From UHGV virus genome UHGV-0285842: 34,986 nucleotides of DNA; one strand, 5' to 3'. The translations under genes were made by a program, and so were the position numbers. Positions 3 to 20,631 of the stretch are shown here, one piece after another; position 1 is the stretch's first letter, and every line of letters starts with the position of its first letter. The stretch comes from a virus. The notes below the pieces were generated by a model. The model was given only the letters and a program-made list of their open reading frames with translations, ran no database searches and had not been told where the DNA came from.

Positions 3-350
3 TTAAAGGTCTGCAAATTCCGCAATCGGTGCCATACCGCGAGATTCAAGGAAGTTCAGTAAGCGGCGCGGAGAAACATTCAAAATGCGCTCTGGCGGAA
101 AATCTACCGCGTCGAGGATTTTAAGACACTCTTCAAATTCCCCCATGGTAAACGCGGTGTGAGAATCCGAGCCTAATGCCACCCAACCTCCAGCATCACG
201 TACCGCTGCGGCTACCTCACGACAGTTGTCTTCACTGCCCTTACGTGAGTGTAAAAATGAGGAATTATTGATTTCCAGCGCCACCTGATGTTTCGCGGCT
301 GCTTCAGCAACGGCTTTCACATCTATTTCATATTTGGGATTCCCTAATAT
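3..350 (-). pseudogene. ycdX: 3' portion of a PHP-family phosphoesterase gene (YcdX-like), apparently truncated at the mobile-element junction
   Basis: Minus-strand ORF ends with stop at 3-5. The C-terminal ~115 aa ([10 protein letters not shown]...[12 protein letters not shown]...APIAEFADL) carry PHP-domain motifs and match my recollection of E. coli YcdX. The N-terminal 60 aa of the ORF (351-533) lack the PHP HxH motif and overlap a well-initiated plus-strand gene at 384. Gene symbol is from memory, not a search. Confidence 0.5.
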
Positions 351-383
351 CATGTACCCACAATAACACGAGGGGGTACAAAA

Positions 384-656
384 ATGAACATCGGCAAAGC
401 AATCATCAACTACGCAGCACGTCGCAACATGGACATTACCTTGATTGGCGATGAGACCGTAGCGTTCTGGGAAGCGGATAACGATTGTGAATGGATGTTC
501 TCCTACATGATTGGTAATGATGGTTTCCTCCACTTTAAAGGCAATGTGTATCTGCCGCAGGAGATTAAAGAAGAATTACCGGCGTGCATCGATACAGACA
601 AGAAGCTGAAAGAAGTAATCAACTTTATCGCTAAAGAGTTTATCAGCAAGAAGTAA
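384..656 (+). CDS. hypothetical acidic protein (90 aa), first gene of left-end cargo pair
   Basis: ATG at 384 preceded by GAGGGGG Shine-Dalgarno; stop at 654-656; next gene starts 12 nt downstream. Confidence 0.6.
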
Positions 657-668
657 GGCAGCAAAACA

Positions 669-1055
669 ATGTTCAATATCATGATTCGTAAATTTGGTGA
701 GATGACTTTCGAGAAAGCTGGTGTTGCGCGTACAGAAGAAGAAGCAATGGCCTTAGTTCTGGTAGCACTGAGATCATCACCTGAGATTATCGACGCTGAA
801 TATGTTGCGGCTGAGGGTGAGATTAAAGAGATTAAAGCGGTTGCTAAGGAATTAGGTGTTAAAGGTTTCCGTAAGCTGAAACTATCCCGCGAGACTTATG
901 TCATTGGACAGCAAGGACAATACCTAGATGAGAATAGCGCGATTGTCCTACTGAATAAGATCACCCGCTATGGTTTCCAGATTGAGCAATATAAAACGTG
1001 TTTCGAATTATACGAAAAAGGTTTGCTGGATACTCTGACCATCGTTCGCGCTTAA
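669..1055 (+). CDS. hypothetical protein (128 aa), second gene of left-end cargo pair
   Basis: ORF tightly coupled to 384-656 and followed by a rho-independent terminator at 1070-1095. Confidence 0.55.
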   Translation: MFNIMIRKFGEMTFEKAGVARTEEEAMALVLVALRSSPEIIDAEYVAAEGEIKEIKAVAKELGVKGFRKLKLSRETYVIGQQGQYLDENSAIVLLNKITRYGFQIEQYKTCFELYEKGLLDTLTIVRA

Positions 1056-1069
1056 TTAATTTCTAATTT

Positions 1070-1095
1070 GGTGGGTGTAATTCCCACCGCTTTTT
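1070..1095 (+). terminator. rho-independent terminator after the cargo gene pair
   Basis: Stem GGTGGG (1070-1075) / CCCACC (1083-1088), 7-nt loop, then GCTTTTT. Confidence 0.6.
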
Positions 1096-1111
1096 AAATG
1101 GAGAATCAAAC

Positions 1112-1192
1112 ATGTTAGCTTTTATCTCATTCGTGGGAGGTAGTCTCACAACCATGATTAGTCTTTCTTATATTGTCGTTAGTATGGGGTGA
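1112..1192 (+). CDS. tiny hydrophobic ORF (26 aa, MLAFISFVGGSLTTMISLSYIVVSMG)
   Basis: ATG 1112 with GGAG 9 nt upstream; entirely hydrophobic; below the ORF-track length cut-off. Sits directly after a terminator, so expression would need read-through. Confidence 0.25.
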   Translation: MLAFISFVGGSLTTMISLSYIVVSMG

Positions 1193-1195
1193 GCA

Positions 1196-1318
1196 ATGAA
1201 ACAATTTCATGATGGCATTTCATCTAAGACATTCAAGAAAGAATATTCGCTGTGTATTAACTGGATTGATTTGATTGGTGCGGTTGTGTTTGGGCTGATT
1301 ATTAGCATTAACTTTTAA
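1196..1318 (+). CDS. small C-terminally membrane-anchored ORF (40 aa, MKQFHDGISSKTFKKEYSLCINWIDLIGAVVFGLIISINF)
   Basis: ATG 1196, stop TAA 1316-1318; polar N-terminus followed by one predicted transmembrane segment. Confidence 0.3.
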   Translation: MKQFHDGISSKTFKKEYSLCINWIDLIGAVVFGLIISINF

Positions 1319-1363
1319 TGATATAAATATATCGTAATTCAAACAACAAGAGGAAATTCTACT

Positions 1364-1783
1364 ATGAAAAAGATTATCGCTGGTGTTGTTCTTGCTCTGG
1401 GTTTGGTTGGTGCTGCGAATGCTAATACCTATACCTATTATGTGTGCAATTCCTACTTCGAATATAAAGGAGATGATACACGCTACCTGAGTGATGGCGA
1501 CCGTTATTATCATGCGCCGTCTGGCAAATACCGTGGTTTTATCGGTGTAAAGGTTCGAGTGAATGATGATAATAGTCAATTTGCTTTCAACGATCCGGTA
1601 TATGATAAGACAATCAAAAGCCCTAAATTGAAAGAAGATAAGAACGAGAAAGAAGAATATTATGGTTCCGAAGATGGTAAAGCCTACATCAAATATCTGC
1701 ATTCTATTGATGGTTCTCCTATATTTGATGTTAAAAAAGGTGATACGTCTTATTCCCTGATTAGCTGCCGTGAAATTCTTTAA
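1364..1783 (+). CDS. secreted Tyr-rich protein with cleavable signal peptide (139 aa)
   Basis: AAGAGGAAA Shine-Dalgarno before ATG 1364. N-terminus MKKIIAGVVLALGLVGAANA is a classic Sec signal with AXA site and no lipobox cysteine; two Cys in the mature part. Confidence 0.7.
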   Translation: MKKIIAGVVLALGLVGAANANTYTYYVCNSYFEYKGDDTRYLSDGDRYYHAPSGKYRGFIGVKVRVNDDNSQFAFNDPVYDKTIKSPKLKEDKNEKEEYYGSEDGKAYIKYLHSIDGSPIFDVKKGDTSYSLISCREIL

Positions 1784-1797
1784 TCTTTAATCACCTA

Positions 1798-1833
1798 GCC
1801 CCTATCGTTATAATACGCGGTAGGGGCGTTTTT
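1798..1833 (+). terminator. rho-independent terminator after secreted-protein gene
   Basis: Stem GCCCCTA (1798-1804) / TAGGGGC (1821-1827) followed by GTTTTT. Confidence 0.55.
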
Positions 1834-1846
1834 GTTTGGAAATGGT

Positions 1847-3526
1847 ATGAAAACTAAACTGTATTCGTATATTCGCTTCTCGTCTATGCGTCAGAATGAT
1901 GGTTCGAGTTATGAACGACAAATCAGGATGGCGAGAGAGGTTGCGGCAAAGTATGACCTTGAACTGGTAAATGATTATCAGGATCTGGGTGTATCTGCGT
2001 TTAAGGGTGCTAACTCCAAAACAGGGGCGCTATCTCGTTTCCTTGATGCAATTGGTAGATCCGTTCCTGTTGGTAGCTGGCTATTCATTGAAAACTTGGA
2101 CCGCTTATCCCGTGCCGATATTGTCAGTGCGCAGGAGTTATTCCTTTCAATCATCCGTAGGGGGATAACCATTGTTACTGGCATGGATAACAAGATCTAC
2201 TCGCTGGATACTGTTACCGCTAACCCGATGGACCTGATGTTCTCCATCCTTTTATTCATCCGTGGTAATGAGGAAAGCCAGACTAAGCGCAATCGTACTA
2301 ACTCAAGCGCACTGATTAAGATTAAAGCCCATCAAGAAAATCCCCAGAATCCGGCAGTGGCAATCGAGGAAGTTGGAAAGAATATGTGGTGGACGGATAC
2401 CACTTCCGGTTATGTGTTGCCTCATCCTACATACTTCCCTGTTGTTCAGGAGATTGTGGAATTACGGAAGAATGGACGTTCAACCGCCGAAATACTGGAT
2501 CACCTTAACGAGACATATACACCGCCACCAGCGGTTAGTAATAAGAAGCATTCAAAATGGTCACGGGCAATGGTTGAAAGGTTGTTCCATACCCGCGCTT
2601 TGATTGGTATCAAGGAAGTCTCTGTAGATGGTGTTAACTATGAGTTAAAGGATTATTACCCTCGTGTTATTGATGATGCTACGTTCTATCACCTTAAGAA
2701 AAATATTGGTGCTAGAGCATGGAACTTTGGAGACAAGGAAGAAGTTAAACCGATCCCCCTGCTTAGTGGTATTGGCCTATTGAAATGTGATCATTGCGGT
2801 TGCGCTATGGTTAAAGTGAAGGGAACGAACAAACGTTCTGACCAGTATCGTTATACATGTGATGCGACCCGTTCACGTAGACTTGATTGCGAGCATCCAA
2901 ACTGGAGTTTTCGAGGTGATCAATTAGAGAAAGCTGTATTGCAATTGCTGGCTGATAAAATCTGGATTGCTGAGGACAAGGCTAATCCGGTTCCGGCGTT
3001 GAAAGTACAGGTTGATGAAATATCACGCAAGATTGATAACCTGATTGCCCTTTCTGCTATGACAGGAGCAACGAAGGAGCTAGCCGATCAGATTACTACC
3101 CTCAATAGCGAGCGTGAAACACTCTACAATCAGATCAAGATGGCAGAAGAGGAAATGTATTCTGTGGACTCTCAAGGCTGGGAGAAGCTCGCAGAATTTG
3201 ATTTAGAAGATGTTTATAACGAGGAACGACTAAAGGTCCGGTTTAAGATTAAGCAAGCTCTAAAGCGGATCGGGTGTAGCAGGATTGACAGAAATAAAAA
3301 CTTGTTTGTGCTGGAATACATCGATGGAAAGACCCAGAGAGTTGTAATAGAAAATTCAAGAGGAACGAGGAAAGGCCGGATATTCATTGATTTGAAAACT
3401 ATCAATGATAGGCAGATTCTGGAGAGTAACGGGCTTGTTTTGCATCCATGTTTAGACATGCTGACAGATAAGAACTGGAAACCAGAAGAGGAAATACCAG
3501 GTCCATTACAGGAATTTGGAATTTAA
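1847..3526 (+). CDS. large serine recombinase (integrase-type)
   Basis: N-terminal resolvase-type catalytic domain (YIRFSSMRQ, DLGVSAF, LDRLSR), central recombinase domain, Cys-rich zinc-ribbon (CDHCGCAMV...YTCDA...LDCEH) and C-terminal coiled coil. ATG 1847 preferred over the track's TTG at 1832. Confidence 0.85.
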   Translation: MKTKLYSYIRFSSMRQNDGSSYERQIRMAREVAAKYDLELVNDYQDLGVSAFKGANSKTGALSRFLDAIGRSVPVGSWLFIENLDRLSRADIVSAQELFLSIIRRGITIVTGMDNKIYSLDTVTANPMDLMFSILLFIRGNEESQTKRNRTNSSALIKIKAHQENPQNPAVAIEEVGKNMWWTDTTSGYVLPHPTYFPVVQEIVELRKNGRSTAEILDHLNETYTPPPAVSNKKHSKWSRAMVERLFHTRALIGIKEVSVDGVNYELKDYYPRVIDDATFYHLKKNIGARAWNFGDKEEVKPIPLLSGIGLLKCDHCGCAMVKVKGTNKRSDQYRYTCDATRSRRLDCEHPNWSFRGDQLEKAVLQLLADKIWIAEDKANPVPALKVQVDEISRKIDNLIALSAMTGATKELADQITTLNSERETLYNQIKMAEEEMYSVDSQGWEKLAEFDLEDVYNEERLKVRFKIKQALKRIGCSRIDRNKNLFVLEYIDGKTQRVVIENSRGTRKGRIFIDLKTINDRQILESNGLVLHPCLDMLTDKNWKPEEEIPGPLQEFGI

Positions 3527-3599: not shown

Positions 3600-4598
3600 T
3601 TAAAGAGCCTCTAAAGGGCTTAAATCGAGTTCTAAGTCTTCCGGTGTTAAATCAGCTAACGGTGCATTCATCCACTGCGATAAATCTCGTTCTATGTCTT
3701 CATCACTAATGTAGTTGTTCAGATTGATTGCGTTGGTATCATCAAAATACATTGGCTTAGATGGGTTGGTGTGGATGTATTCATTGATGAATGATTTAAC
3801 ATCTTTCAGCTTGCTAATCGGTAGCGTTTCTGTGAATCCGCTATTCATTACCTTACGTGGGATTTTCTTGCCCTGAATATTCTTTTTAATCCCCATTTCT
3901 AAATCACCAGCTTTCCATCCAATGTTAAACAAATGTGAGCATTCAAAGGTGATTTTCTCGCTGGTGTGCTTCTGGTGTTCTCTTACCCGTTGCATCGGAT
4001 CTTTGCGAGTGGTAATTCCATATTTGAAAAACTTCTCGCCAACACGAATTAGATAAAAGTGCATAGGGCGCTGTGCAAACTTGTTTCTGATAACCTGTTT
4101 TCTACCATTCTGAATTGATTTAAGTACACCCCTAACCAAAGGGCATGTTAACCCGCCTTGTCTGCGGTTATTGTGTAAATCACCTTTCTTGTGAATCTTT
4201 CCGTGGCACTTACAACGAAGAATTAGTTTAGTGTCAACACCCTGATAAGGTTCAGCCAGACCTAACACATCCCACCCTATCGGCTTGTAGAACTTGCGAG
4301 CGTTTTCTAAGTGTTCTTCTTCGGTAAATCTAAACTTCTTCTTAGGCGGTGATACTCTATCTTTGCCAGTAAACTGACCAGTTAGAACATGACTAATACA
4401 TGGCGTTTTAACCTTTCCGTTAACTTCTATGCAAACTTTGGTGTTCTGGAATGGTTTCTTTACAGGAAGCACAAAACCACTGTATAACCATCCATGCACT
4501 TGACAAACTTTAATGATTCTGGTTTCATATTCGACCGGAGGGGTCGCACGTTTGCTTTTTGCGGTAAATTCGATATCCTTTGCTAAAGTAGTATTCAT
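3600..4598 (-). CDS. putative T5orf172 / GIY-YIG-like domain protein with Cys/His cluster (possible nuclease)
   Basis: Start ATG 4598 with GAGGAC Shine-Dalgarno (track ORF extends further upstream without a ribosome-binding site). Motif HFYLIRVGEKFFKYGITTRKDPMQRVREH resembles the T5orf172 signature; Cys/His cluster CKCHGKIHKKGDLHNNRRQGGLTCP upstream of it. Assignment from memory only. Confidence 0.4.
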   Translation of the reverse strand: MNTTLAKDIEFTAKSKRATPPVEYETRIIKVCQVHGWLYSGFVLPVKKPFQNTKVCIEVNGKVKTPCISHVLTGQFTGKDRVSPPKKKFRFTEEEHLENARKFYKPIGWDVLGLAEPYQGVDTKLILRCKCHGKIHKKGDLHNNRRQGGLTCPLVRGVLKSIQNGRKQVIRNKFAQRPMHFYLIRVGEKFFKYGITTRKDPMQRVREHQKHTSEKITFECSHLFNIGWKAGDLEMGIKKNIQGKKIPRKVMNSGFTETLPISKLKDVKSFINEYIHTNPSKPMYFDDTNAINLNNYISDEDIERDLSQWMNAPLADLTPEDLELDLSPLEAL

Positions 4599-4633
4599 AG
4601 TAGTGTCCTCGAAAATAATAAGTTCACTACTAT

Positions 4634-5074
4634 TTATTGAGAAAAATTTGTTGTAATGGTTGAAGACCACGGGCATGAGTAGTAACCACGACCGCCACCG
4701 ATCAAACAAATGGTCGGACGGAAACCAGTAAGATCACAAAATGAATCAGTGTCATGCGCAGGAGAACGATGCTCTGCTTCGTCAGAGAAAATGTTTGCCA
4801 CCGGAGATTCCACTTTAACTTCCGGTGCTTCTTCAACATCTGACTTAACTTCTTCAACCACTGGTTCAACTTCTGGAGATTCTTCTTTTGTTTCTTCAAT
4901 GACGATCTCAGGTTCTTTCATTGCTTCAACCAGAGACGGATCAACTTCGTCGAATACCACTTTATCATCTGCGGTATATTTGTCTATAATGAAAAAATGG
5001 TCAGAAATATAGCTAACGTCGCCAGCATATTCTAACAAAAAAGCGCCCACAAGAGGCGCTTTTGTTTTATCCAT
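4634..5074 (-). CDS. hypothetical acidic Glu/Val/Pro-rich protein; start uncertain
   Basis: ORF in a low-complexity region. Candidate ATG at 5074 overlaps the stop of the M15 gene and would place the 5043-5059 hairpin inside the coding sequence; alternative internal starts exist. Confidence 0.3.
   Translation of the reverse strand: MDKTKAPLVGAFLLEYAGDVSYISDHFFIIDKYTADDKVVFDEVDPSLVEAMKEPEIVIEETKEESPEVEPVVEEVKSDVEEAPEVKVESPVANIFSDEAEHRSPAHDTDSFCDLTGFRPTICLIGGGRGYYSCPWSSTITTNFSQ
5037..5063. terminator. bidirectional hairpin at the end of the late/lysis operon
   Basis: Stem GCGCC (5043-5047) / GGCGC (5055-5059), A-run upstream and T-run downstream; immediately 3' of the M15 gene stop (5067). 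Confidence 0.5.
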
Positions 5075-16888: not shown

Positions 16889-17185
16889 TTAAAACTCCAT
16901 GAATTTAAAATATTCAACACCACCTTCACCCCCTAAACCAAAGGAGACGGTGCAGCCAGCAGGAACAAACGAATTTATAGTAGATCCCCAATTGGTCCCA
17001 CCACGACGACGAGCAACGGTCAAACCATCTACGTTAATATGTGCATCAGACCACCCACCACCAGCATTATGACGCATTACAGCGACACCAGCACGAGCAG
17101 TACCATAGCCGTTAGGAATATCAAATACATGCCATTTTAAAGCATCGATTTTAGTATTAATTTCACTACTTACCCAATATCCCAT
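16889..17185 (-). CDS. small Gly-rich protein, paralog 1 of a tandem triplet (98 aa)
   Basis: AAGGA Shine-Dalgarno before ATG 17185; conserved FDIPNGY block. Confidence 0.6.
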   Translation of the reverse strand: MGYWVSSEINTKIDALKWHVFDIPNGYGTARAGVAVMRHNAGGGWSDAHINVDGLTVARRRGGTNWGSTINSFVPAGCTVSFGLGGEGGVEYFKFMEF

Positions 17186-17223
17186 ATAAGAATCCTTAGC
17201 GGAGATTTCTCCCCGCTTTCCAA

Positions 17224-20200
17224 TTACCCTAATTTAGCTTCAATTGCAGCAAGACGTTCACGAAGAAGTTTATTTTCTTCGCTCATTTCTTGGACCGCTT
17301 TAATTAAAAGCGCGTTCACTGCGGAGTTTGAAATTGTTAAAATTTCTTCTGGGTTATCAAGACCACCAATTTTTGCGGTTTTAACAGCTTCCGGTAATAC
17401 CTCTTGTAAATCCTGTGCGATAATACCAATCTCATGACCTATAACTTCTCGGTCATTAAGAGATTTAACTTTATCGTAGGTTTTAACTTTGAGTTTATTT
17501 ACCTTATCCACCGCATTTTCTTCGTAATCTTCAACATTAATTTTCAGACGACCATCGGAACGAATATAAACATCGTTAAAGTTACCATTACCAGGAGAAT
17601 AGAAAGTACCATCATGATGGAACTCGAATACAGCTTGAGGATGACCAGCCGCTGGCGATGCCTCCGCAGATCCAACACGAATAATAGCTTGCCCCCAATT
17701 TTGAGGAACACGACGCATACCAAAATCGACGGCAGTTGTATACCCTTGATTGGTGATTAAACTTCTTCCTTTAATAATTGGATAATAGCTATCTGGTCCA
17801 ACATAGCCATGATCGACGAATATTGGAGCTTCTAATCCCCATTGATCGCCCCAACCTCCAGATTGGCTAGCAGTCCAACGTTCACCATGAACATAGAATC
17901 GAACGTTATTGACATGAGTCATTTCGACACCTTTTGGACTTAGCGCGATATCACCCGCGTTTGTAATATTGATAGCAGCATTAGTAGCATAGCTATAGAA
18001 CGCTAATCCATTATCAGCACCACCTTTACCGATATACCAGTTGTTATTATCAGCACAAGTACCCAGCAAATATATAGACGAATCACCCGTTTCGGCATTC
18101 ATGACGATTGCGTCAGAACCACGATTAACTTTAAGTTTCCCGAAGAAGGTGTTTTTAATGGTATTATCACCCAATCGTTCAAATTCTGCTAAAAATCCTT
18201 TTGAGTCACGAAGACTTAAAACGTTATTTCGACCTGTATTGCTTGCACCCCAATGGACGAGTTCCATATAGTCCATAGATTGACGAGAACCAGCTTTAAA
18301 GAACAGGTTGTCTTCGAGACGAGTGCTACCATCAATTCCAAGATGCAAACAACGAGCAGTTTCAGTGCCACCTAAATATAATCCACCGTCAGCAAAATTA
18401 TAGCTGAATGGTCTACGAGTATTCCACGGTCCAAATGAATCACCGAGATCTGTGGTAAGAATATGGAAGCCAACGCCATCATTTCTAAAAATTAAGCCAT
18501 AATTGCCACCTTTAACAGCCAAACGAGCATTTTCAGATAATGCAACTTCGCTATTCATTACAATTTTCTGGCCTTTACCGCCAGTAATATGCAATTCACC
18601 ATCTTCAATCAGGTTTATAGAGTTTTGACCGTTATCGTTCCACCAAATAAAATCTTTGGTCGTCAAATCACCAAAACCAAACCAACCATTACGAACATCT
18701 TGACCAGTGCGATAATCCATAAAATTAAAATGGCTTGATTCGTTTGGTCCTCGACGAATATCAATACCAGCATTACCAGTACCACCATCCAATGTTAATT
18801 TCTTGATATGTAACCCGGATGTTGCTGTCAGCAATAATTCCTGATTTGTATCTTCGTATCCAGTAGCAAGACGATATGCGTTATCATCAACTGTCTCATG
18901 CCAGATTGTAGCTGGTGCACAACTACGGAAGCGACGCAACATCTTTTTAGCATTTGTCGGTTGTTCGTTTAAATGCTCAATATCATATTGGCCTTGATGA
19001 TTGCCAGCAAAATTTAACGTCCCACGGTTGCTAAAGTTATTGAACGATGAAATGTTAAGAGCATCAAAAATTTCGTCTGCAACAGGTTTTTCACCACCCA
19101 GATATTCAGGAGTATCCAACAGGTTTAAAGAAACACCACCGGAAGAAACTTGATATTCTGCTAAAACAAATCCTGTATGTGCACCGTAGTAAGCGTAAAG
19201 ATCGTAATTGTCGCCATCGGTTGGAATAGCGCAAAAATGTTGTTCATAATGCCAAATAGTATAATACGCATTGAATACAACACCTTTCGGGCTATTGTTG
19301 CCGCATCGAATCACCAATTCGATAATATTGGCTTGTCCATTATGTCCTACGTTATAACCGTTACCACCAACCAAACGGATCTTAGCCGTGCGACCGTGTT
19401 GTTGTGGCATTGTCAAAGTGCCTAGTTTAAACCAACCACCCTCGATACCAAAATTAAGCGTCTTCTGGAACAGTCGGTCAATTTCTGCTTTCGAATATGC
19501 GCCAATTTCAGCCGGAGTAGGTTTATCGCCTTCATGATACATGCGGTGAGAATATGACAAATTACCTAATTCATCATAGCCGTATGTTCTTACAGTAGCA
19601 TGTGGATTAGACCCATAAGTGAACTCGAAGCCACGAGCATGATTAACACCAGATGGATGCGGAACATGCAAGATCATTGCAATATGACCCGCCAGGTCAT
19701 TCATGCGGAATGCACCAAAGTAATCAAGATTACGCGCATTTGGATCATCAAAATAGTTTGCGGTCTTAGACAGCAAATAACCATCAGTATAAGTGTTTAC
19801 GTGTTTTTTGATGTACTTGCCATCAGCAGATCCATCGGCTGCATCAATACGGCTTTCTAAACGTGCCAGTTCAGAATCAGTGTAAGACTTGTTATTGTCA
19901 ACTTTGCTATGAATTGCTGTATTTTTGGCTTCAACATCACGGGTTAATGCTGCGACGTTATCCGCTGCCTCTTGCTTATTGGCTGCAATCACACCAGTAA
20001 GGTTATTGTAGGTGTCAGTTAACTGATTTTCCGCATAGACTTTATTTGCTGCGATAGTGCGGTCAGTTTCTGCCTTAATCAAATCAACCTTGTCATTGAT
20101 TGCTTTGTCATTGCTTGCGATGGTTGCATCGGTGCGGGATTTAATATCATCAACTTTTTTATTGATGCGGGTGTCCAGTTCCTGAGTTGCTACAGCAGCC

Positions 20201-20631
20201 GCATTTTTATTAGCGTTGATGGTATCCGACAATTCAGCTTTAACACCAGCAAGGTCGGAAGCAGCTTTATTTTTATTGGCCTCGATTGTCGCGTCGGTTT
20301 CGCGTTTAATTACATCAACTTTATTGTTAATTTCTGCGTGATTTGCTGCGATGGTTGCATCAGTAGTTTGTTTAATTTCATCTACTTTAGCGTGAATATT
20401 GCGGTCATTTACTGCAATTGTGCTATCTAGTTCTTGTTTGTTAGCATCAACTTTAGATTCTAGTGCCGCGTGAGTTTCAGGAGAAACAGAGATTTGAACT
20501 ACTTCATGATCTCGGTCTTTGGTAAAAATAACATGGTCTTTAAGGTTGATTGCTACCTCACCGACCTGTAATTGTTCCGGCGTTGGTTTTTTGCCAGAAA
20601 CATTAGTTCGTTTAAATTGGATTGATTGCAT
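17224..20631 (-). CDS. side tail fibre (1135 aa) with C-terminal peptidase S74-type intramolecular chaperone domain
   Basis: N-terminal repeated KVDxIKxxTDATIxAN units, central beta-helix-like Gly/Asn-rich region, C-terminal ~110 aa (SDGRLKINVEDY...LLRERLAAIEAKLG) resembling autoproteolytic chaperone domains of phage fibres and endosialidases. GAGGTGA Shine-Dalgarno before ATG 20631. Confidence 0.8.
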   Translation of the reverse strand: MQSIQFKRTNVSGKKPTPEQLQVGEVAINLKDHVIFTKDRDHEVVQISVSPETHAALESKVDANKQELDSTIAVNDRNIHAKVDEIKQTTDATIAANHAEINNKVDVIKRETDATIEANKNKAASDLAGVKAELSDTINANKNAAAVATQELDTRINKKVDDIKSRTDATIASNDKAINDKVDLIKAETDRTIAANKVYAENQLTDTYNNLTGVIAANKQEAADNVAALTRDVEAKNTAIHSKVDNNKSYTDSELARLESRIDAADGSADGKYIKKHVNTYTDGYLLSKTANYFDDPNARNLDYFGAFRMNDLAGHIAMILHVPHPSGVNHARGFEFTYGSNPHATVRTYGYDELGNLSYSHRMYHEGDKPTPAEIGAYSKAEIDRLFQKTLNFGIEGGWFKLGTLTMPQQHGRTAKIRLVGGNGYNVGHNGQANIIELVIRCGNNSPKGVVFNAYYTIWHYEQHFCAIPTDGDNYDLYAYYGAHTGFVLAEYQVSSGGVSLNLLDTPEYLGGEKPVADEIFDALNISSFNNFSNRGTLNFAGNHQGQYDIEHLNEQPTNAKKMLRRFRSCAPATIWHETVDDNAYRLATGYEDTNQELLLTATSGLHIKKLTLDGGTGNAGIDIRRGPNESSHFNFMDYRTGQDVRNGWFGFGDLTTKDFIWWNDNGQNSINLIEDGELHITGGKGQKIVMNSEVALSENARLAVKGGNYGLIFRNDGVGFHILTTDLGDSFGPWNTRRPFSYNFADGGLYLGGTETARCLHLGIDGSTRLEDNLFFKAGSRQSMDYMELVHWGASNTGRNNVLSLRDSKGFLAEFERLGDNTIKNTFFGKLKVNRGSDAIVMNAETGDSSIYLLGTCADNNNWYIGKGGADNGLAFYSYATNAAINITNAGDIALSPKGVEMTHVNNVRFYVHGERWTASQSGGWGDQWGLEAPIFVDHGYVGPDSYYPIIKGRSLITNQGYTTAVDFGMRRVPQNWGQAIIRVGSAEASPAAGHPQAVFEFHHDGTFYSPGNGNFNDVYIRSDGRLKINVEDYEENAVDKVNKLKVKTYDKVKSLNDREVIGHEIGIIAQDLQEVLPEAVKTAKIGGLDNPEEILTISNSAVNALLIKAVQEMSEENKLLRERLAAIEAKLG
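20040..20420. repeat. imperfect tandem repeats (~48 bp units) in the fibre N-terminal shaft
   Basis: Recurring GCGATGGTTGCATC...TTTAAT-TCATC-ACTTT blocks, at least four copies, encoding the repeated KVDxIK-TDATI peptide motif. Confidence 0.5.

Follow-up and report, generated by a model that had tools for sequence, protein, structure and literature searches.

When are the small genes between the end of a prophage and its integrase expressed, and do they form one system? This question is raised by virus genome UHGV-0285842, a stretch of 34,986 nucleotides that was analysed at its full length (hereafter, the window), in which five plus-strand open reading frames (ORFs), gp90, gp128, ORF26, ORF40 and gp139, stand between the prophage junction and the gene for a large serine integrase (int). 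A sequence-only reading of the window had listed the five ORFs, two terminators and a signal peptide, all of which were found as listed, and had treated the ORFs as a candidate accessory system. Its statement that no ORF resembles a morphogenesis or replication function also held in Pfam, NCBIfam and PADLOC searches; its integrase start, TTG 1832, was corrected to ATG 1847. Our analysis indicated that gp90 and gp128 probably have a sigma-70 promoter that is co-extensive with the phage attachment site attP, so that integration would split it and silence both genes until excision.

The attachment site and its proposed early promoter

The window was identified as the left 35 kb of a prophage of ~36 kb, inserted by a large serine integrase inside the Escherichia coli gene ycdX. 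The crossover was assigned to a central TT dinucleotide by comparison of the host site attB (gggaTTtccggg) with the prophage junctions attL (gggaTTccctaa) and attR (tagggTTtccggg). Joining the left part of attL to the right part of attR of a relative gave an intact YcdX frame, 100% identical to uninterrupted ycdX, and the uninterrupted site was present in 5369 of 5426 complete E. coli genomes. In the complete relatives PigCaeca_2 and ES2, the 5′ part of ycdX was located ~36 kb to the right. The rebuilt attP is a dyad-symmetric site of 52 bp whose 25-nt arms around the TT match at 17 of 25 positions, a value reached in none of 20,000 shuffles. It fits the description of a large-serine-integrase attP/attL: about 50 bp, an imperfect dyad, a central dinucleotide, conservative recombination and a nearby cognate integrase. 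A sister lineage with a 92%-identical integrase was inserted in another gene, hicB.

Only ~42 nt of phage DNA (ccctaaTATCATgtacccacaataacacGAGGGGGtacaaaaATG) precede the gp90 start codon at 384. In addition to a -10-like hexamer, TATCAT, this segment contains a predicted transcription start near 360 and the Shine-Dalgarno sequence GAGGGGG at 371–377. A -35 hexamer was found 36 kb away, outside the window, on the attR side, where the order is terminator hairpin, ttttttattggaaaaatttagttattagggg, TTGACT (-35) and acgttagggTT, with the hairpin ~25 nt upstream of the -35. In the rebuilt attP the two parts came together as TTGACT-17-TATCAT in two ycdX-type phages and as TTGACT-18-TATCAT in the hicB type, the inner att bases being different. 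This predicted promoter scored 10/12, and in three lysogen types an A/T-rich stretch (ttttttattggaaaaatttagttatta before TTGACT-17-TATCAT) and a hairpin terminator were located just upstream of it. Sites of at least 10/12 occurred only 8 times in 70 kb (both strands of the window). The hybrids formed at attL scored 8/12 (ycdX, ATTTCA-17-TATCAT) or 7/12 (hicB and Salmonella) and were without the A/T-rich upstream element. Both hexamers occupy the non-symmetric part of attP, and the central TT lies in the 17-nt spacer.

The -10 hexamer and the leader downstream of it are homologous in the window (TATCATgtaccca), phage ECD7 (TTGACA-17-CATAATacacccatcgaaac), the Salmonella attL (TATTATacacccatcgaaac) and T1-like phages (CATAATgtacccatcgaaac). 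The promoters of gp90 homologues in virulent phages scored 11/12. In an un-integrated relative (contigs L008–L013), the homologous flank, the sequence TTGACC-17-TAATAT and a gp90 homologue were all contiguous.

In the model that we proposed, the A/T-rich upstream element and the -35 would lie in the left half-site of attP and the -10 in the right half-site. On the circular genome, either in a fresh infection or after excision, the promoter would be intact and would be fired at once by host RNA polymerase, and transcription of gp90 and gp128 up to the hairpin at 1069 would make them a two-gene early unit. Integration would move the -35 36 kb off and silence the unit with no need for a repressor; the pair is predicted to be off in the lysogen because the -35, the UP-like element and the upstream terminator are all at the other prophage end. 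Integrase bound at attP would also occlude the promoter or compete with the polymerase. Some read-through from attP into ORF26, ORF40, gp139 and int would be plausible, since ORF26 and int begin just past hairpin T-runs. Alternatives for these downstream genes would be a weak internal promoter at 1145–1174 (9/12) and a TATAAT in the loop of the hairpin before int.

Table 1 Features of the left end of the window, in window coordinates.
Feature	Position	Strand	Evidence
ycdX 3′ fragment (PHP-family phosphatase, host gene cut by the prophage)	3–341	-	ORF translation; RefSeq annotation of relatives; attB reconstruction
attL crossover point, central TT dinucleotide	340–341		attB/attL/attR comparison; attP-attB identity is TT only
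attP right half-site kept at attL, ccctaatatcatgtacccacaataa	342–366	+	Dyad symmetry with left half-site at attR of relatives
-10 hexamer TATCAT of the proposed attP-spanning promoter	348–353	+	Homologous -10 and leader before virulent-phage gp90 homologues and at Salmonella attL
gp90, 90 aa, acidic (pI 4.9), member of a phage early-gene family	384–656	+	ORF; phrog_6147, E 5e-33
gp128, 128 aa, acidic N-module (1–50) fused to basic C-module (51–128)	669–1055	+	ORF; C-terminal half phrog_14908, E 9e-19
Intrinsic terminator or attenuator after gp128	1069–1097	+	Hairpin 1069–1089, -11.4 kcal/mol, z -3.5, then TTTTT
ORF26, tiny hydrophobic peptide, 26 aa	1112–1192	+	Leader GGAGAATCAAAC at 1100–1111; same-length ORFs in other lineages
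ORF40, micropeptide, 40 aa, C-terminal transmembrane segment	1196–1318	+	Third-position substitutions; annotated in RefSeq relatives
gp139, Sec-exported Tyr-rich protein, 139 aa, 15 Tyr, two Cys in mature part	1364–1783	+	Signal peptide encoded at 1364–1423
Strong hairpin and T-run directly before int	1798–1837	+	Hairpin 1798–1827, -20.5 kcal/mol, z -2.6; TATAAT 1809–1814 in 8-nt loop
Large serine integrase, 559 aa	1847–3526	+	Pfam Resolvase, Recombinase, Zn_ribbon_recom; phrog_95 integrase

The gp90/gp128 pair and the competing explanations

In the locus comparison, which took in ~60 related loci, gp90 was the first gene past the junction throughout. A tblastn search found its homologues in 422 phage records of virulent types, all annotated as hypothetical, and the carriers were T1-like Drexlerviridae, Sortsnevirus, 146–152-kb phi92-like phages, the 163–170-kb RB49 (Krischvirus) group and RaK2. 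Family members always appeared behind what is predicted to be a strong sigma-70-type early promoter. The C-module of gp128 was present in 57 RB49-group records, and its profile search returned 35 clusters, mostly of stand-alone proteins of 76–105 aa. In ECD7 (L067), homologues of gp90 and of the gp128 C-module were 700 nt apart, each preceded by a separate promoter of the form TTGACA-17-(C/T)A(T/C)AAT and by the leader ..cgaaac..AGGAGAATCAAAcaATG.

In the window, gp90 and gp128 are separated by 12 nt and share the same frame. In Salmonella, the two modules of gp128 had a gene each, of 81 aa for the C-module and 62 aa for the N-module, and in five related loci (L033–L037), where the integrase is 94–99% identical (99% in four of the five), gp128 was absent and the gp90 allele was only 68% identical. 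A toxin-antitoxin pair was considered and dropped, because gp128 can be dispensed with and, elsewhere, the homologues occur as separate genes. A leader hairpin (GTACCC/GGGTAC) that would sequester the ribosome-binding site was also dropped, its fold being no better than that of shuffles (z -0.9).

Remote-homology search and structure prediction, which the sequence-only reading had proposed for these proteins, were productive in part. Besides the matches to phrog_6147 and phrog_14908, they gave gp90 a predicted RWD/UBC-like alpha-beta4-alpha fold with a confident model; gp128 was modelled as two small alpha/beta, ferredoxin-like modules with generic fold matches only. A fold search of BFVD returned only uncharacterised family members. 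An alignment of 24 members of the gp90 family had the conserved motifs EWMFSY and GNxYLP..IKEELP, no invariant Cys, no HPN and an only semi-conserved C35. Thus, unlike RWD/UBC-like (E2-fold) domains, gp90 has neither HPN nor an assignable catalytic cysteine; the sequence identity is ~10%, and there was no sign of a ubiquitin-like partner. As to its role, we can only guess; most likely, gp90 would bind a host protein soon after infection and neutralise it, for host takeover or anti-defence.

Two further observations concern the phages that carry these homologues. In T1-like phages (L003, L018, L039–L078), the gp90 homologue is preceded by an extended -10 (TGgCATAAT) and, ~15–20 nt further upstream, by a conserved palindromic motif, AATAGCACTTTTTGCTAAAAC, which could bind a regulator or serve as an early-gene promoter element. 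Positions 16918–19035 of the window, within a minus-strand tail-fibre gene (17224–20631), shared 97% DNA identity over 2.1 kb with the long-tail-fibre distal subunit of KFS-EC, a virulent Krischvirus. Since Krischvirus is the same group that carries gp90 and gp128 C-module homologues, this segment points to a recent exchange between a temperate and a T4-type phage.

The explanation that the sequence-only reading had favoured is that the whole cluster is cargo expressed from the prophage, for lysogenic conversion, superinfection exclusion or an anti-phage function. The position between junction and integrase speaks for it, as do the OmpW/Ail-like barrels and the LprI-like exported protein that the region carries elsewhere, the exported gp139 in its variable slot with a weak PADLOC match (PDC-M63A, E 0.005), and the micropeptides ORF26 and ORF40, which could act at the membrane. 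However, the five ORFs gave nothing significant against Pfam, NCBIfam, PADLOC and PDB sequences, and gp90, gp128, ORF26 and ORF40 had no defence or toxin-antitoxin match in PADLOC, Pfam and NCBIfam. For gp90, with or without gp128, a role as lysogenic-conversion cargo appears unlikely because the homologues are early genes of virulent phages and parts of the promoter are at the other prophage end; the silence predicted for the pair in the lysogen is the opposite of cargo expressed from a prophage. Nor do the five ORFs co-vary: because gp128 is missing beside a 99%-identical integrase and the gp139 slot is variable, the cluster is not the single system first supposed but a mosaic of three parts, gp90/gp128, ORF26/ORF40 and gp139. 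As an account of the whole cluster, prophage cargo is thus unlikely; it fits gp139 and perhaps the micropeptides, not gp90 and gp128. We rather favour, with some confidence, the view that the five ORFs belong to a hyperplastic accessory array of promoter/stem-loop and ORFan cassettes like those known from virulent RB49-type phages, and make up the part of it next to attP. The interval from the small terminase gene to the integrase was a variable accessory region with many exported proteins.

A second explanation holds that the likeness to -35 and -10 is a by-product of the integrase half-sites, that gp90 and gp128 are transcribed by read-through or from another promoter, and that integration has no regulatory meaning. 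Several observations on this side weigh against the split promoter. The hexamers fall within the 52-bp attP, and their conservation might partly reflect integrase binding. Promoter activity and its loss in the lysogen are both predictions from the DNA sequence, and promoter-like matches are common in A/T-rich DNA (those of 9/12 were fewer than the shuffle expectation). The ycdX hybrid at attL still reaches 8/12 and one hicB variant has a perfect TATAAT; therefore, residual expression of gp90 and gp128 in lysogens is possible. Exact-pattern searches of viral and metagenome contigs for attP as it would read in the window's phage type gave 0 matches, and the fold matches of the proteins are generic. 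Pattern searches also gave 0 matches in viral contigs for the L008 promoter, and only chance matches in unrelated taxa among genome contigs for the attR terminator with the -35. A by-product would nevertheless hardly account for hexamers in the non-symmetric part of attP, for a -10 and downstream sequence homologous to promoters of phages that have no integrase, for a terminator directly upstream of the -35 at attR, or for the rarity of such high-scoring matches in the window. We consider this explanation improbable, more so than the cargo one.

Least probable of all, and very improbable, is a role of gp90 or gp128 as recombination directionality factor (RDF) of the integrase, which would be the reason for its linkage to attP and int. 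In favour of it, an RDF is required by large serine integrases, is conserved in neither sequence nor fold and may have additional, lytic functions (PMC12286644); none was identified in this phage, and gp90 accompanies the integrase in E. coli, Salmonella and the free-phage lineage. Against it, neither protein co-varied with the integrase (L033–L037, as described above), the gp90 family is widespread in integrase-free phages, the location of attP inside the gp90 promoter would explain the linkage, and a promoter strong in the attP state would supply an RDF on infection, where it blocks integration, and none in the lysogen, where it is needed.

Micropeptides, the gp139 slot and the integrase

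ORF26 starts 15 nt past the T-run of the 1069–1089 terminator, which leaves no room for a promoter of its own, and its leader is the ribosome-binding leader typical of RB49-group cassettes. The ORF was once suspected to be spurious, as the DNA alignment failed outside close relatives, and this judgement was reversed by same-length ORFs in three lineages. A 26-aa ORF was found at the equivalent place in Salmonella and L008 (in L028, a 29-aa ORF overlaps ORF40 by ATGA), and the three lineages keep its length, position and 35–42% amino acid identity at ~50% DNA divergence. Identity in frame was 9–11 of 26 residues, against 3–6 of 25 (12–24%) out of frame. ORF40 was conserved in E. coli, Salmonella and the free-phage lineage. 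Its N-terminus, MKQFHDGISSKTFKK, was invariant in the E. coli lineages and L008 and differed at 2 of 15 residues in Salmonella; over the first 15 codons, the substitutions at codon positions one, two and three numbered 0, 0 and 8. It was located upstream of int in every examined lineage with this integrase, with only the variable gp139 slot in between, and tblastn against phage genomes gave no match to it. Both membrane micropeptides are probably real, and they would probably be fed by read-through together with the weak internal promoter.

gp139 has a signal peptide (MKKIIAGVVLALGLVGAANA|N) with, by eye, the n-h-c layout MKK-IIAGVVLALGLVG-AANA|N and an AXA cleavage motif. Its slot, between ORF40 and the int-proximal hairpin, was variable among relatives: it was empty, or it held an 81-aa protein, a 113-aa membrane protein with the 81-aa protein, or a 348-aa nuclease-like protein. 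The 81-aa protein shares an identical 20-residue signal peptide with gp139 and has an unrelated mature part. gp139 thus behaves as an exchangeable moron in a hot-swap slot and is the only good candidate for lysogenic conversion, so that the cargo proposal kept its force here, in a variable region of exported proteins, and lost it for gp90 and gp128.

The integrase gene begins 10 nt past the T-run of the second hairpin, which may be a combined terminator and int promoter; the hairpin loop was kept in Salmonella (cccctatcgTTATAATggtagggg) and not in L008. The ycdX- and hicB-targeting integrases (1847–3526 of the window versus 5516–7192 of L001) were 92% identical, and their 43 differences clustered at residues ~195–360, where the DNA-binding domains (recombinase and zinc ribbon) lie. 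A few inner bases and one additional base at the centre distinguish the two attP sites, and the enzymes form a compact natural pair for studying how large serine integrases choose their targets. Lysogens of the hicB type have this antitoxin gene divided by the prophage, with hicA and the hicB 5′ part at attR and the 3′ part at attL (L007 12410–12940; L001 3896–4015); excision would restore the antitoxin.

A second hot-swap slot lies right after int (3600–4709, minus strand). In the window it holds a 369-aa nuclease-like ORF (phrog_681, E 7e-20) with weak CapR/MUG113 and PD-Lambda-1 matches, and in relatives a DEAD/DEAH (UvsW-like) helicase or a GIY-YIG nuclease. The idea that two distinct phage bodies carry the attL-to-int module in E. 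coli was dropped, as ES2 proved to be the same phage with another gene in this slot. On the circular map, the gene left of attP, at the right prophage end outside the window, was variable cargo, either a 101-aa ORFan or a 259-aa exported LprI-like protein (L006 5105–5410; L007 11377–12156). The adjoining 184-aa minus-strand gene encodes the small subunit of the terminase (phrog_57) and is far removed from the gene for the large one (26578–28482).

Elsewhere in the window, two small plus-strand proteins, of 64 aa (32699–32893) and 86 aa (29175–29435), were paralogous (35% identity, E 2e-9). They share RPxxF...FYK.MKK, a motif that was also seen by eye at the C-terminus of a 200-aa ORF (28570–29172), and had no family match. 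Between the two strongest sigma-70 matches in the window (minus-strand start 30965 and plus-strand start 32343, both 11/12) lies an ORF-poor stretch of 1.2 kb (31480–32699). In the 28.5–35-kb region, neither a repressor nor a replication gene was recognised, the only match being a Rha/Ant-like 276-aa protein, and Rfam at its gathering threshold detected no RNA family in the window.

Comparison with known systems and implications

The proposed promoter resembles the promoter-early stem-loop (PeSL) cassettes of the T4-like phages RB49 and phi1, which were found experimentally to be strong sigma-70 promoters, one wild-type clone reaching ~13,000 Miller units (Arbiol et al. 2010, PMC2839356). PeSLs have an A/T-rich upstream region and a G/C stem-loop, mostly between -35 and -10, and flank ORFans in hyperplastic regions (PMC2839356). 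The site studied here shares with them consensus-like sigma-70 hexamers at 16–18 nt spacing behind A/T-rich DNA (here, TTGACT-17-TATCAT), a G/C palindrome in the spacer, hairpin terminators that separate the cassettes, and the ribosome-binding leader GGAGAATCAAA before a small ORFan. ECD7 has 9 copies of this leader within 12 kb (8 exact, 1 with one mismatch), and one exact copy precedes ORF26. The ORFans gp90 and gp128 C-module, too, have homologues in the RB49 group. Unlike the PeSL carriers, the phage here is a temperate one of 36 kb, and its promoter activity is predicted from sequence, whereas that of the RB49/phi1 PeSLs is experimental. The palindrome also differs, being the core of a serine-integrase attP, TTAGGG-TT-CCCTAA, with a 2-nt centre and no stable stem-loop, and this counts against the proposal. 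What appears unusual is the serine-integrase attP inside a PeSL-like early promoter; the ORFs themselves are ordinary ORFans. We suggest only tentatively that a PeSL-type early promoter serves a large serine integrase as attP; this would make a natural recombination-gated switch for early ORFans and possibly, via read-through, for the micropeptides and int.

The circles of the insertion sequences (IS) IS911, IS2 and IS30 reportedly form junction promoters whose -35 comes from one end of the element and whose -10 comes from the opposite end. Such promoters, like the one proposed here, exist only while circle formation keeps the two ends together, and insertion destroys them. Here, however, the element is a phage with a large serine integrase, and the promoter would drive accessory early genes, not demonstrably the recombinase gene. 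A preprint on ISPpu9 circles likewise describes a hybrid promoter (bioRxiv 10.1101/2025.01.17.633520). A location of attP inside a transcription unit, which ties expression to the integration state, is a further likeness to known phage systems. These include the integration-dependent immunity of mycobacteriophages, reported by Broussard et al. in 2013, and the split operon that Bertani reportedly conceived in 1970 for the P2 int. In those systems, attP is in a coding sequence or between promoter and gene and the integrases are tyrosine integrases, whereas here attP would be in the promoter spacer. The placement of attP in a promoter may thus be a new version of known integration-dependent switches, namely IS junction promoters, integration-dependent immunity and the split operon. 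A literature search on promoters within attP found nothing relevant, and the matches for ycdX and prophages were unrelated.

If the split promoter works, it would confine early functions, possibly toxic or anti-defence ones, to the non-integrated state without a repressor, and it would be a natural counterpart of synthetic serine-integrase logic gates. It would also account for the constant association of gp90 with attP and int, with no need for gp90 to be an integration protein. Movement of ORFan cassettes, and of a tail-fibre segment, between RB49-type virulent phages and a temperate phage of E. coli is also apparent. Whether the cassettes are linked to site-specific recombination was left open in the PeSL study (PMC2839356); if the proposal is true, mobile promoter/stem-loop cassettes of the T4 type would be so linked, and a concrete site-specific recombinase is now at hand for PeSL-like sites. 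The gp90 family, with members in more than 400 phage genomes and a confident fold model, is a reasonable candidate for host-takeover or anti-defence screens.

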